Shown: piece by piece, positions 4,024 to 23,730 of the stretch
Layout: every line of letters starts with the position of its first letter
How positions within the stretch are numbered: the first letter of the stretch is position 1
Source: a virus
Taxonomy: Duplodnaviria; Heunggongvirae; Uroviricota; Caudoviricetes
IMG/VR virus record: IMGVR_UViG_2711768042_000001
Span: 1-24,687 of that record
Direction: 5' to 3' (one strand)
Length of the DNA stretch: 24,687 nucleotides
Position numbers and translations under genes: made by a program
The notes under the pieces: model-generated
What the model was told of the DNA's origin: nothing
The model's database searches: none
What the model saw: the letters and a program-made list of their open reading frames with translations, nothing else

Positions 4024-4100
4024 TGGCGTGGCATGCAGGATTCGAACCTGCGACCAACCGCTTAGAAGGCGGTTGCTCTGTCCAACTGAGCTAATGCCAC
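4024..4100 (-). tRNA. tRNA-Arg (anticodon UCU, decodes AGA), phage-encoded
   Basis: Reverse complement folds as a canonical cloverleaf: acceptor GTGGCAT/ATGCCAC, D-arm GCTC-AGTTGGACA-GAGC, anticodon arm ACCGC-CTTCTAA-GCGGT (anticodon TCT), T-arm GCAGG-TTCGAATC-CTGC, discriminator G and encoded CCA. Differs from E. coli argU as I recall it (from memory, not a comparison). Confidence 0.9.
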
Positions 4101-20054: not shown

Positions 20055-20453
20055 TTAAGTGTATACCTCCTGTTGCTCAGTGGTGATTTTACCCGGCAAC
20101 ACCTTTTTAGCTTTGTGCGGGTTAACCACATGGCCTTTAGTCCAGTACTCGTAGAGCACATCGTCACACTCTTCCTGATACTGGATTACCTTGTCGCGGA
20201 TTTCAGGGCGGACTTTGTTAGGGCTGATGCTGTTCAACCAAGCTGCCAATTTTCGTAAAGCCATACAAATCATGGCTTGCACCCCACCGGCAGAAGGTAT
20301 GGTGATTTCCACCATACCCTTCGAGAAGCGTTGAGAAATCTTCTTATGTTGAGATTTCCAGTCTAGCCCCATTCCCTCAACGATAGGTTTCATTGGGGTA
20401 TACGGTTCGCCGTTGTGATTGACAACATAAAGCTCTGCGCCGTGGAATGGCAC
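20055..20453 (-). CDS. antirepressor N-terminal-domain-like protein (P22_AR_N-like), possibly truncated
   Basis: N-terminus FHGAELYVVNHNGEPYTPMKPIVEGMGLDWKSQ...VIQYQEECDDVLYEYWTKG has the style of P22-antirepressor N-domains (from memory). Starts with GTG, no clear SD, only 132 aa, so may be a remnant. Confidence 0.45.
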   Translation of the reverse strand: MPFHGAELYVVNHNGEPYTPMKPIVEGMGLDWKSQHKKISQRFSKGMVEITIPSAGGVQAMICMALRKLAAWLNSISPNKVRPEIRDKVIQYQEECDDVLYEYWTKGHVVNPHKAKKVLPGKITTEQQEVYT

Positions 20454-20590
20454 GTTGATAGTAGTGACAAATTTGAAACATCGCTGGTTGTAAGCCAGCA
20501 GATGCTCGTTATTTTACGTCGCGGCACAATTTCTCGCTGCTGGCTCTTTTACACACATTAACCAAATATGGTTGATTTTAATATTTATAC

Positions 20591-20886
20591 GCGCTTATCA
20601 TTACCTTTGCGGTAAATTTACATTGCATTCCTCTTGTGCCATAGTAATCGGGCACTGGCAAAATCCAGTGTCGGGATTGGTCTCCCGGATTACTAAGTGG
20701 CGCATACCACGCCAGACGTGGTTTTTTTATGCGTATAGCACAGTCATGCCAGAATTATGGTGGGCTGAATGGGGGTCCGAAAGGACGCCGGTACCACTTA
20801 GGCCGGTAAGACCAACTCCGTTCAGTTCACCACCATCTGATTGGTCTCAGCGGTGGTGATGTAATTCGCTAAGTGGAGACGCCATC
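20591..20886 (+). promoter_or_regulatory. structured ~295-nt leader upstream of the AntA-like gene (copy 1 of an inverted pair)
   Basis: About 85-90 percent identical to the reverse complement of 23122-23412; contains TTACC-TTTGC-GGTAA (20601-20615), two stem-loops, an intrinsic terminator, then complementary sites AGACCAA (20809-20815) and TTGGTCT (20841-20847) before the RBS GGAG. Confidence 0.7.
20651..20727 (+). ncRNA. candidate C4-like antisense sRNA, copy 1 (SL1 CACUGG-CAAAAU-CCAGUG; SL2 CGGGA-UUGGUC-UCCCG; terminator CCACG-CCAGA-CGUGG then U7)
   Basis: Three consecutive hairpins ending in a U-run, about 77 nt; SL2 loop UUGGUCU is complementary to AGACCAA in the downstream leader. 5' end not determined. 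Confidence 0.45.
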
Positions 20887-21543
20887 ATGAACGCTCAACT
20901 CATCCCCGTATTCAACGGCACTATATCTAACGAAACAGCCCTACTTTGTAATGCCCGCGATCTGCACGCTTTTTTAGGTGTTAAAAAGGTGTTTGCAGCA
21001 TGGATTACAAATCGCATTTCAGAATACGAATTCATTGAAAATCAAGACTATATTTTGCTTTCCAATTTGGGAAAGCAAACATCTGGTAGAGGCGGCCACA
21101 ACCGCAAAGAGTACCACCTCACCCTTGATACAGCCAAAGAGCTGGCGATGGTCGAGCGTAACGAAAAAGGTCGCCAGATACGACGCTACTTCATTGAATG
21201 CGAGAAACGTTTAAGACAACAAGAAACAAAGGTGGAGAAGGTCTTGTCAGGCTTCATGCCAGCCATTATGGAGGCGATCAAGCTGGAAGACAAAAAAGAA
21301 TACAGCGCCCAACTGAAGCCCGGCTACCGCAGCCTGATTCATTCGCCGTCTGGTGTTCTCGGCCTGACGGAGAACTCACTGCTGATGAATTTGCTGAACC
21401 AGTTACAGGAAGACGGGCATGATGTATCGGGCGCGGCAGCGGAGCTGACCACCATGTTCTGCTACATCGTCGGTGTGAGCAAATGCCTGCGTGATATCCA
21501 GACGCACGCGGAGTACATCAACGACAAGGCAGGGTTCTTCTGA
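20887..21543 (+). CDS. antirepressor, AntA-type N-domain plus shared C-terminal domain
   Basis: ATG with GGAG 8 nt upstream; N-domain ...[16 protein letters not shown]...[30 protein letters not shown] matches the AntA pattern; the C-terminal 80 aa are near-identical to the C-terminus of the 22435..23121 gene. Confidence 0.75.
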
Positions 21544-21568
21544 CGAGCGGCGGCACAGGGATGTGCAA
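21301..21568. repeat. inverted repeat arm A (antirepressor C-domain coding plus 25 bp of 3' flank)
   Basis: About 94 percent identical to the reverse complement of 22410-22677. Confidence 0.8.
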
Positions 21569-21678: not shown

Positions 21679-22218
21679 TTACCAAAACTTGTACCACGGG
21701 GATTTATCCTTCAATGGACAATCCTTCCATCGTGTGGCCAACCATTCATATTCTTTAAAATATGTGTTTATGTTTTCTTTTTCTCTAATAGCTTGTATAA
21801 GAGGTAGCGCAATCTGATAGTTATTTACAACGGAGCTGTAAAATACTTCCTTAATCATGGTCTCATCATAAGTTTTCCGCTTCACGCTCACAGCCATGCG
21901 TTCGTAGAAACCTAGACAGTAAATTATTTCTCTCTTCTCTATCTTTTCTTCATCCGTAAGATCAGCCTGCCCATTGCTTGGATACATATAAGAGCGGAAT
22001 GATTTGTTCGATTCGTGAATGCGGCGCATAGTAGATAGGCCTTTCTTATAATCTACATCAAACCTGCTTTCACCAAGGAATACTGAAGTGTGTACTTTTC
22101 TCGCTGTATTTACATTATAAATAATAGTAGCGATAGCTATGAACAAGCCAAGCGAAACCGCGACTGCACTTACGATTTGAGCCACAGCCATGGCAAATTG
22201 CATTTCTTCACTTAACAC
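21679..22218 (-). CDS. membrane-anchored accessory protein (N-terminal TM helix), unknown function; exclusion/abortive-infection candidate
   Basis: GTG 22218 with GGAGA 6 nt upstream (alternative ATG at 22203); TM segment FAMAVAQIVSAVAVSLGLFIAIATIIY; own terminator; AT-rich; lies between the two convergent antirepressor cassettes. Confidence 0.6.
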   Translation of the reverse strand: MLSEEMQFAMAVAQIVSAVAVSLGLFIAIATIIYNVNTARKVHTSVFLGESRFDVDYKKGLSTMRRIHESNKSFRSYMYPSNGQADLTDEEKIEKREIIYCLGFYERMAVSVKRKTYDETMIKEVFYSSVVNNYQIALPLIQAIREKENINTYFKEYEWLATRWKDCPLKDKSPWYKFW

Positions 22219-22409: not shown

Positions 22410-22677
22410 AGGCACATCCCTGTGCCGCCGCCCGTCAGAAGACCCCTGCCTTGTCGTTGATGTATTCCGCGTGGGTCTGGATATCACGCAGGCATTTACT
22501 CACACCGACGATGTAGCAGAACATGGTGGTCAGTTCCGCCGCCGCGCCCGATACGTCGTGCCCGTCTTCCTGTAACTGGTTCAGCAGATTCATCAGCAGT
22601 GAGTTCTCCGTCAGGCCGAGAACACCAGACGGCGAATGAATCAGGCTGCGGTAGCCGAGCTTCAGTGGGGCGCTGTA
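22410..22677. repeat. inverted repeat arm B (antirepressor C-domain coding plus 3' flank)
   Basis: Reverse complement about 94 percent identical to 21301-21568. Confidence 0.8.
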
Positions 22678-23121
22678 GGTTTTGTTCTCTACCTTCATTG
22701 CCTGCATCACTGCTGATGCTGTGGCGCTGGCTACCTGGTCGGCAACCATCTTTATGCGTTCTTCCTGCGGGAGCGAGTTTTTAATGTAACTTCCGGTGCG
22801 GCGGATCTGAGGAAGAACCTCACCTGTAACCCATTTACGAAAGCGGTAGGGGGTAGTGCCTGGTGTCACCGCATCGCGGCAGCGGAGGATCAGTGTGTAG
22901 AGGCCTGACTCGTTGATAATATTGGTTTCGCCTTGACGGCCTAAGTTAAATTTAGCCCTTTCATCATCATCAAGAGATTTTATTGACATAGTGGGGTTTG
23001 TCAGTTGAAGAGCTTTAATAACGTCTTTGGCAACAAACCAAGGATTTCCATCAATAACAATGGCTCGAATGGTTGCTTCTGATTCAAAATGAAAAACAGA
23101 TGGGGTTACGTTAGCAGTCAT
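22435..23121 (-). CDS. antirepressor, Bro-N-type N-domain plus shared C-terminal domain
   Basis: ATG 23121 with AGGTGAT upstream (track ORF extends to 23274 but that N-terminal extension overlaps the conserved leader). Bro-N pattern: IDGNPWFVAKDVIKAL...NESGLYTLILRCR...YRFRKWVTGEVLPQIRRTGSY. Confidence 0.75.
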   Translation of the reverse strand: MTANVTPSVFHFESEATIRAIVIDGNPWFVAKDVIKALQLTNPTMSIKSLDDDERAKFNLGRQGETNIINESGLYTLILRCRDAVTPGTTPYRFRKWVTGEVLPQIRRTGSYIKNSLPQEERIKMVADQVASATASAVMQAMKVENKTYSAPLKLGYRSLIHSPSGVLGLTENSLLMNLLNQLQEDGHDVSGAAAELTTMFCYIVGVSKCLRDIQTHAEYINDKAGVF

Positions 23122-23274
23122 AGCGATCACCTTTGTAGTTAGGTTAATCACCACTACCGACGCCAATCGGTTGGTGGTGAACTGTGCAGGGTTGGCGTAA
23201 CCGGCTACAAAGGACCCGGCGCACCTTTCGGTGCCCCCACACAGCCCACCATAGAATAGGTGCGCTTTACACAT

Positions 23275-23352
23275 AAAAAAACCGCTTATGCGGCATATGT
23301 GCCTCTGTAGTAACTCGGGACGCCAATCCCGGCACTGGATTTTGCCAGTGCC
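23275..23352 (-). ncRNA. candidate C4-like antisense sRNA, copy 2 (SL2 loop UUGGCG; terminator CCGC-AUAA-GCGG then U7)
   Basis: Same three-hairpin architecture as copy 1; loop UUGGCGU is complementary to ACGCCAA (plus 23192-23198, read on minus) in its own leader. Confidence 0.45.
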
Positions 23353-23387
23353 CGATTACTATGGCACAAGAGGAGTGCGATGTAAAT

Positions 23388-23402
23388 TTACCGCAAAGGT
23401 AA
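23388..23402. promoter_or_regulatory. palindromic motif TTACC-GCAAA-GGTAA, site 5 of 6
   Basis: Exact string at the upstream end of leader copy 2, mirroring 20601-20615 in copy 1. Confidence 0.4.
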
Positions 23403-23433
23403 ATATAAGCACTCCATTTGGTAATTGCAAACC

Positions 23434-23691
23434 TTATCTGGTTTGTTTTCGTAATTGTTCGGCACAATAGTCGAGATGTGTTTGCAGATCCTGCATAGAC
23501 ATCTGTGAGCTGGTGACGTAGTTAATCAGTGCAGTCAGTTCGGCAAGTGGGCCATCGACATTAAATCCATCCTTATCGAGATCCCGGAGTAATTTCATCA
23601 AGTGCGATCCCTCCACCAGTGACCTGACGCCTCCCGGCGTGTGAATCCTTTCGGTAAATCCGTCTTCCAGTGGATAGTGATACTGCTGCAT
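23434..23691 (-). CDS. small protein (about 85 aa) homologous to the antirepressor C-terminal domain only
   Basis: ATG 23691 with GGAG 6 nt upstream (track start 23814 is probably too long because it would cover the LexA box and operator motifs). YHYPLEDGFTERIHTPGGVRSLVEGSHLMKLLRDLDKDGFNVDGPLAELT aligns with [50 protein letters not shown]. Confidence 0.55.
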   Translation of the reverse strand: MQQYHYPLEDGFTERIHTPGGVRSLVEGSHLMKLLRDLDKDGFNVDGPLAELTALINYVTSSQMSMQDLQTHLDYCAEQLRKQTR

Positions 23692-23710: not shown

Positions 23711-23730
23711 AACTGTATATTTATACAGTA
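23711..23730. promoter_or_regulatory. LexA (SOS) box: AACTGTATATTTATACAGTA
   Basis: CTGT-N8-ACAG with an AT-rich spacer, 18 of 20 matches to the E. coli consensus TACTGTATATATATACAGTA; 20-40 nt upstream of the 23691 start on the minus strand. Confidence 0.6.

Follow-up and report, generated by a model that had tools for sequence, protein, structure and literature searches.

Two c4/IsrK-type antirepressor cassettes with different pairing sequences in one epsilon15-like Escherichia coli prophage

Introduction

The principle of the c4 RNA switch has been known since 1990. In phages P1 and P7, RNase P cuts the c4 RNA from an operon transcript, the b' loop of c4 occludes a ribosome-binding site, and the a' segment provides target specificity; a difference of 4 nucleotides (nt) in a', with matching changes in the target, suffices to prevent cross-reaction. 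The c4-a1b1 motif, described in 2010, has the same layout of sites as the leaders considered here, and a1 and b1 were proposed to compete for c4. Here, we analyze two leaders of antirepressor (ant) genes in the IMG/VR virus record IMGVR_UViG_2711768042_000001 (Caudoviricetes), positions 1 to 24,687, a stretch of 24,687 nt that we call the window. Very probably, the two leaders and their genes constitute two complete, convergent RNA-controlled antirepressor cassettes of the P1 immI (c4/IsrK) type, each most likely regulating its own ant gene.

In the prophage Gifsy-1, most transcripts stop at the terminator of the short RNA IsrK, while the read-through RNA is translationally silent; IsrK provided in trans switches on the antirepressor AnrP (Hershko-Shalev et al., 2016; PMC4825925). 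The IsrK mutations G28A or G31A abolish both binding and trans-activation, and the partner changes C162U/C159U restore the silent fold (PMC4825925). At the protein level, the Ant of phage SPC32H is a tetramer that breaks up the tetramer of the Rep repressor.

Results

Two leaders with the same set of RNA elements

The window represents the late region of an epsilon15/phiV10-like E. coli prophage, up to the tailspike gene. It contains two convergent and intact cassettes, each upstream of its own ant gene. Leader 1 occupies positions 20593-20886 of the plus strand, and leader 2 is the reverse complement of 23122-23412. When the minus strand of 23110-23450 is aligned with 20560-20900, the column identity is 84%, and a repeat search of the window yielded inverted arms at 20593-20695/23308-23410 (91% identity), 20786-20860/23147-23221, and 20713-20742/23261-23290. 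This agrees with the original prediction, made from the sequence alone, that the second leader is an inverted copy of the first.

To identify the RNAs, we used Rfam covariance models with their curated gathering scores, 50 bits for isrK (RF01394) and 45 bits for C4 (RF01695), on both strands. Each leader carries isrK followed by C4, and all four matches exceed the gathering score. The IsrK-like RNAs are at 20652..20728 (+, 65.5 bits) and 23275..23351 (-, 74.2 bits), and the C4 antisense RNAs at 20753..20837 (+, 61.2 bits) and 23170..23256 (-, 79.5 bits); both C4 matches are full-length, covering model positions 1-87. These families and the GenBank annotation of P1 identify the element as the c4 system of P1/P7 immI, and not as an unknown mechanism. 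The c4-a1b1 model (RF03163) had no match at the gathering score within the window. It does match P1, and in related loci as well as in P1 it covers the same DNA as isrK, which argues that IsrK is, judging from these shared matches, the a1/b1 "decoy" RNA plus its terminator. RF01394 and RF03163 overlap in loci L084, L106, and L202 (P1), though isrK stands outside clan CL00128.

The candidate promoters of the two cassettes, identified by a consensus scan, have the same form, TTTACA-17-CATAGT with a TG extension (20617..20645, + and 23358..23386, -), and lie 7 nt upstream of the isrK model start. IsrK-like RNA 1 comprises two hairpins, a linker, and an intrinsic terminator. In both copies, the decoy has a1 in the loop of the second hairpin (SL2), b1 just 3' of it, and then the terminator. 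In copy 1, a1 is UUGGUCU (20677..20683), b1 in the linker is CUAAGUGG (20693..20700), complementary to b' with a duplex of -14.5 kcal/mol, and the terminator at 20706-20722 is followed by a T run. In copy 2, the respective elements are UUGGCGU (23326-23320), CUACAGAGG (23310-23302), and a terminator with a T run (23294-23281).

The minimum free energy (MFE) folds of both C4 RNAs (-41.2 and -45.2 kcal/mol for the two copies) consist of a long closing stem, a hairpin with a GAAA tetraloop, a hairpin exposing b' in its loop, and a single-stranded a'. In copy 1, b' is CCACUUAG (20794..20801), located in the loop of the second C4 hairpin, and a' in the 3' segment is AGACCAA (20809..20815), complementary to a1; in copy 2 they are CCUUUGUAG (23213-23205) and ACGCCAA (23198-23192). 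Both C4 RNAs have a 3' ACCA and a tRNA-like stem, the sequence prerequisites for processing by RNase P to an active RNA of ~77 nt.

The targets follow immediately. Site a2 is presented in the loop of a small hairpin just 3' of C4 (UUGGUCU, 20841..20847 in copy 1; UUGGCGU, 23166-23160 in copy 2), and b2 overlaps the Shine-Dalgarno sequence of the ant gene (CUAAGUGGAG, 20869..20878 for ant1; CUACAAAGGUG, 23138-23128 for ant2), namely GGAG in copy 1 or AAGGUG in copy 2, 9-10 nt before the ATG. The Watson-Crick match is 7 nt for a':a2 and 8-9 nt for b':b2 in both cassettes.

The reported joint change of three 7-nt sites is present in both copies, and the sites correspond to a1, a', and a2 in the P1 nomenclature. 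The prediction missed the second, longer co-varying trio b1/b'/b2, and the site it described as an upstream complement actually lies 3' of the SL2 loop, at a distance of about 130 nt and within C4. The stem reported to change from GUCC/GGAC in copy 1 to CACC/GGUG in copy 2 is real as well, being the GAAA-capped first hairpin of C4.

By analogy with the described systems, a cassette most likely works as follows. Transcription would start at a sigma-70 promoter that adjoins a palindrome resembling an operator, and a 77-nt IsrK-like RNA, with a1 in a loop and b1 in the linker, would end at the intrinsic terminator. Read-through would yield a C4 RNA of about 80 nt, with b' in a loop and a' single-stranded, and then the ant leader with a2 and b2. 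C4-1 and C4-2 would each silence their own ant mRNA by pairing with a2/b2, while IsrK-1 and IsrK-2 would compete, through a1/b1, for their own C4 and thereby turn ant on; the a and b sequences would determine the leader on which a given C4 or IsrK acts. We infer this regulation, and the processing of C4, from the sequence, family membership, and co-variation. The original prediction had assigned repression to the short RNA bearing SL2, whereas in the known systems it is C4 that represses ant, and IsrK is the activator, or decoy.

Open reading frames (ORFs) in the leaders were scanned as well. In neither copy does a leader ORF end at or overlap the ant start. Leader 1 has only a 26-amino acid (aa) ORF, ending inside C4, and an AUG at the 5' end of C4 is followed by a stop after 3 codons in copy 1 and 15 codons in copy 2. 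Small ORFs over the leaders were rejected as coding, as they run through the Rfam-matched RNAs. A mechanically called 279-aa ORF (22435-23274) was rejected too, as it crosses such RNAs and homologues of ant2 start at 23121. Its ATG at 23274 (-), just after the terminator of IsrK-2, is in frame with ant2 through all of C4-2; having no Shine-Dalgarno sequence and no equivalent in copy 1, this is probably a coincidence.

The promoters of both leaders are accompanied by palindromes of the form TTACC-N5-GGTAA: TTACCTTTGCGGTAA (20601..20615) in cassette 1 and TTACCGCAAAGGTAA (23388..23402) in cassette 2. A pattern search found eight such sites in the window, at 1215, 1233, 4423, 20015, 20601, 22348, 23388, and 23768, compared to 0.4 expected. 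All are intergenic or at promoters, including both leader promoters and the gap between the small ant gene described below and the tailspike gene. At the leaders, the palindrome adjoins the -35 element, the position of the C1 operator Oc4 in P1, and it is probably the operator of a phage regulator. Upstream of cassette 1, a consensus scan also found a promoter-like site, TTGATT-18-TATCAT (20572..20601, +), a putative positional analogue of the second P1 c4 promoter.

Covariation across the family

A pattern scan of viral contigs produced 120 loci with 100 distinct leaders carrying a C4. Sites a1, a', and a2 are mutually complementary in 98 of these 100 leaders, which fall into the classes CGU (61 leaders), UCU (29), AAC (7), and UCC (1). 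In the remaining two, a' and a2 belong to the AAC class, and a1 is either UUGGAGC, which still pairs via a G-U wobble, or UUGGUCU. Three more a classes (UUAGCAG, UUCGCAU, and UUUGCAC) were found in other loci.

For a formal test, we aligned 50 diverse homologues including P1, and compared the pairing with 500 shuffles and with slid controls. For a1:a', 99.4% of the cells were paired, and 55 double-change cells were observed as opposed to 11.3 ± 2.6 in the shuffles, none of which reached the observed value (0/500); the slid controls paired at only 20-47%. For a':a2 the paired fraction was also 99.4%, with 56 double-change cells (0/500 shuffles). Thus, co-variation, proposed from two copies as the mark of real RNA-RNA pairing partners, holds when related prophages are aligned and scored.

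Varying loop lengths precluded scoring of the b sites on the MAFFT alignment, and we compared the lengths of cognate and non-cognate duplexes instead. In 85 of the 100 leaders, the Watson-Crick duplex between the b' loop and the Shine-Dalgarno region of the same leader is 8 nt or longer, whereas non-cognate duplexes are mostly 4-6 nt. In total, the 100 leaders contain 45 different b' strings, and 33 of these are supported by a b':b2 duplex that is 8 nt or longer.

Six b classes were each found with two a classes, so the three a sites must have switched together at least six separate times. Such repeated joint switches answer the worry that the agreement among the sites merely reflects shared ancestry. 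In addition, we considered an independent sample of 53 species-representative genomes, spanning Enterobacterales to Aeromonas; here, the search pattern prescribed UUGGCGU as a1. CGCCAA was present in 49 of them, and a further UUGGCG downstream in 47.

These data bear on the alternative that the leaders are a drifting inverted duplication, and the matching changes are coincidental or a sign of a decaying copy. The region is indeed a recombination patchwork, with a P22_AR_N remnant, inverted repeats, and variable cargo. Still, the RNAs of both copies score above the Rfam gathering thresholds, neither ant ORF is disrupted, three-way complementarity is retained at two separate sets of sites, and the same rule governs the homologues described above. 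We consider drift refuted already and assign it hardly any probability.

Specificity of the cassettes

Compensatory changes of a and b underlie the heteroimmunity of P1 and P7, and together with the IsrK mutants of Gifsy-1 they already demonstrate that differences of this type determine specificity. Between the two cassettes, two of the seven a positions and most of b are different; the control exerted by each is therefore most likely confined to its own ant gene. Predicted duplex energies point in the same direction. For b':b2, the cognate duplexes have -13.3 (copy 1) and -13.2 (copy 2) kcal/mol, compared to -4.9 and -9.6 kcal/mol for the crossed ones; for a':a2, the cognate values are -9.5 (copy 1) and -10.3 (copy 2) kcal/mol, and the crossed ones -4.4 and -5.6 kcal/mol. 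Hence, the cassettes are likely orthogonal, as far as sequence complementarity can tell.

Alternatively, residual complementarity and a shared promoter and operator could make the locus one unit with two outputs. Five of the seven a positions are common to both cassettes; the duplex between b' of C4-2 and b2 of leader 1 is the one with -9.6 kcal/mol, and cross-pairing is thus non-zero; and the first ~100 nt of the leaders, including the promoter and the palindrome, are 91% identical. Moreover, relatives tolerate the same a class in both cassettes. On the other hand, at both sites the cognate duplexes exceed the crossed ones in stability by 4-8 kcal/mol, a difference of 4 nt separates P1 from P7, and single-base changes in the a1 loop of Gifsy-1 IsrK abolish binding and activation. 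Such cross-talk seems improbable to us, though clearly less so than drift.

Several of these observations and some others also weigh against the reading of two complete cassettes, each regulating its own gene. In particular, the matches at five a positions and the -9.6 kcal/mol duplex limit the separation between the cassettes, and the co-resident pairs with the same a (L157, L162) leave it uncertain which site carries specificity. As the promoters are near-identical, the transcriptional inputs may not be independent. The cassettes have no coupling ORF of the icd or orf45 type, and the details of translational control may differ from those in P1 and Gifsy-1. The gene for the phage repressor lies outside the window. 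Finally, there are natural chimeras, in the second cassette of L133 (C4 near 9450, -) and in L063:5890-6146 (-), where a1 belongs to one class (CGU or UCU) and a'/a2 to another (UCU or AAC). They may mean that the a1 match is dispensable or, alternatively, may be recombination intermediates.

Prophages with several cassettes

To assess how common the arrangement is, we considered 80 related prophage contigs carrying the same small Ant (see below). One cassette was found in 67 of them, two in five, three in one, and none in seven, so prophages with several cassettes make up about 8% of this sample. Three complete E. coli genomes, TUM9803, A_5, and MS8345, each carry a convergent pair of cassettes that differ in both a and b; in these records, only the proteins are annotated, and the cassette RNAs are not. 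Most of the phage matches listed have no annotated feature under the leader either.

An array in the viral contig L084:2286-5104 (-) consists of four tandem isrK-C4-ant cassettes with a spacing of ~850 nt, all confirmed by Rfam. Their a classes are UUAGCAG, UUGGCGU, UUCGCAU, and UUAGCAG, and the four b classes are all different. Another viral contig, L106, has two tandem cassettes with the same b and different a. Conversely, two co-resident pairs in the 80-contig sample, those of L157 and L162, share a and differ only in b. Among the multi-cassette loci examined, including L084, no co-resident pair is identical in both a and b.

Such a pattern need not result from selection. In another reading, the cassettes are functional and the difference between them is a by-product of recombination from a large pool of existing a and b alleles, with no co-evolution inside this prophage and no selection for orthogonality as such. 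This reading competes with the scenario of duplication followed by compensation, and not with the function of the cassettes. The a classes of the window, CGU and UCU, as well as its b classes, recur in many unrelated contigs; all four combinations of these a and b classes exist elsewhere; and b2 overlaps the gene start, so that the b class travels with the type of the ant gene. Furthermore, each cassette of the window has a counterpart of 99.6% identity that is the only cassette of a deposited phage, a different phage in each case. None of the 235 deposited phage records matching a leader has two cassettes.

The absence of identical co-resident pairs speaks against this reading, although the sample is small. 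A random pair drawn from the 80 parsed cassettes of the 80-locus sample is identical in about 17.5% of cases, and the probability of seeing no identical pair in ~7 multi-cassette prophages by chance is about 0.26. Hence, selection for orthogonality is not demonstrated, and we regard a by-product of recombination as somewhat favored.

Given the four combinations and the matches to sole cassettes, the two cassettes were most likely acquired ready-made from a reassorting pool and did not diverge in place. The changes between the leaders had been described as compensatory. Probably, they did not arise by compensation within this prophage; both classes are common alleles of a family-wide pool.

Antirepressor genes and their surroundings

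Each leader does stand ahead of its own antirepressor gene, of the AntA and the Bro-N type, respectively, as had been noted. The first, ant1 (20887..21543, +), encodes a 218-aa protein with an AntA N-terminal domain (PF08346, 3.9e-26) and an Ant-like C-terminal domain; it matches PHROG antirepressor families, with phrog_450 at residues 135-216 (1.5e-34). The second, ant2 (22435..23121, -), encodes 228 aa with a Bro-N N-terminal domain (PF02498, 2.9e-20) and an Ant-like C-terminal domain, with phrog_450 at residues 145-226 (1.8e-35). The antirepressors had been described as different, which is true only of their N-terminal domains. The last ~80 aa of Ant1 and Ant2 are near-identical in a protein alignment, and at the DNA level the C-terminal domains are covered by the arms of a 282-nt inverted repeat (21285..21566 and 22412..22693, 94%).

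These C-terminal parts are homologous to a third protein of the window, a small Ant of 85 aa (23434..23691, -), which is of the SPC32H type (PDB 5D50 chain E, E = 4.1e-47) and 37% identical to Ant1 over the full three-way alignment. As both C-terminal domains and the small Ant match the same phrog_450, we interpret the former as an Ant module fused to two different N-terminal domains, AntA and Bro-N.

Upstream of the small ant gene is a perfect LexA box, CTGTATATTTATACAG (23713..23728). The pattern of the box has three matches in the window compared to 0.3 expected; the one at small ant has an AT-rich middle and lies 22 nt upstream of the start codon. Judging from these features, the small ant gene and its LexA box are the predicted SOS-controlled induction switch of the prophage. 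Three Ant-domain proteins thus appear to be under three controls, SOS and two RNA switches. Ant1 and Ant2 end in the SPC32H Ant-type domain, and the small Ant has a LexA box, so these probably are three separately gated routes, two RNA switches and the LexA box, to what would be the same repressor.

Other genes of the region vary among the relatives. At 20055..20453 (-) there is a P22-type antirepressor remnant with the P22_AR_N domain only (PF10547, 1.3e-44); in E. coli relatives, its counterpart bears the annotation of an incomplete pseudogene. Phage TL-2011b retains a P22-type Arc/Ant module of the kind from which this remnant derives. Between the convergent ant genes there is a cargo gene encoding a DUF4760 protein (21679..22218, -; PF15956, 1.6e-30). 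In relatives (L001, L203-L205), the same segment carries a YafO-family toxin gene or small hypothetical genes, and it looks like a slot for morons or defence genes. Elsewhere in the window, a phage tRNA-Arg gene (anticodon tct; 4024-4100, -) is located between the terminase and portal regions.

Discussion

Earlier work had established the RNA families, their pairing logic, and the contribution of a and b differences to specificity. The new element seems to be the arrangement only, that is, several differing cassettes in one prophage. In the literature open to our search, which comprised few subscription journals and not the original P1 papers, we found no description of a prophage with at least two complete c4/IsrK-ant cassettes that differ in specificity, consistent with the suggestion that two specificities in one prophage had gone undescribed. 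Likewise, in the literature open to search, with few subscription journals, no description was found of c4/IsrK cassettes combined with a LexA-controlled Ant paralogue. At this locus, three usually separate literatures meet, on P1 c4, on Salmonella IsrK, and on the LexA-Ant switch of SPC32H.

Some prophages, then, carry more than one cassette, and the addresses differ. Should the cassettes prove orthogonal, induction of this prophage would have several triggers under separate control, and the family would offer many ready-made orthogonal pairs of RNA regulators and targets for engineering. A broader proposal, which we consider speculative and rather doubtful, is that enterobacterial temperate phages build arrays in which two to four c4/IsrK switches, no two of them identical, are specified by a two-part code of at least seven "a" words and dozens of "b" words, freely reassorting, under selection against shared addresses. 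Such arrays would feed several SOS-independent signals, together with SOS via the LexA-controlled Ant, into the same repressor through the shared Ant domain. If true, they would form an induction circuit with multiple inputs and, at the same time, a natural collection of orthogonal RNA regulators.

Comparison with known systems

The closest counterpart is immI of P1. Its GenBank annotation lists, in the same order as in the window, the C1 operator, two promoters, a1, b1, a 77-nt c4, and a2 and b2 before the first gene, and an operator-like site is present at the promoter in both cases. In the P1 c4 sequence, b' is in a hairpin loop and a' is single-stranded 3' of b', as in both copies here, and the c4 RNAs of P1 and P7 belong to the same Rfam family as the window C4s. 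In P1 and P7, the a and b sequences define immunity specificity, and we propose the same logic for the two cassettes. The differences concern the genes and the context. P1 has icd, whereas the window cassettes do not, and their b2 lies directly on the Shine-Dalgarno sequence of ant. P1 encodes Ant1/2, while the window encodes AntA or Bro-N fusions to an SPC32H-type Ant domain. P1 is a plasmid prophage, and the element of the window is an integrated podovirus-like prophage. Finally, P1 and P7 have one cassette each, while here two cassettes of different specificity share one genome.

The IsrK-orf45/STnc1160-anrP locus of Gifsy-1 of Salmonella shares with the window cassettes the isrK match, the terminated short RNA, and the read-through into an antirepressor gene. 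The place taken by C4 in our cassettes is occupied there by STnc1160, a stable RNA that arises by processing. The positions 28/31 and their partners 162/159 would fit the UUGGCGU/ACGCCAA pairing of copy 2, if mapped by position. The downstream RNA was not interpreted as a c4 homologue in the Gifsy-1 paper (PMC4825925), but by this analogy the orf45/STnc1160 region looks like one. A review noted that the nucleotide sequence of orf45 is conserved, while its protein sequence is not. Unlike the window cassettes, Gifsy-1 has a 45-codon ORF coupled to ant, and it was described with one such locus, whereas the window has two.

SPC32H, an epsilon15-like Salmonella phage, shares with the window a homologous Ant (PDB 5D50), the LexA box, and the type of the phage backbone. 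Its Rep-Ant switch is controlled by protein and SOS, with no RNA switch described, while in the window the Ant domain would also be under c4/IsrK control. In Acinetobacter baumannii, a single genome encodes several C4-like RNAs with different a'/b', for which distinct targets were proposed (Weiss et al., 2016; PMC5320573). Those RNAs are dispersed over the chromosome, whereas the C4 RNAs of the window are parts of complete cassettes, each with its own decoy and ant target.

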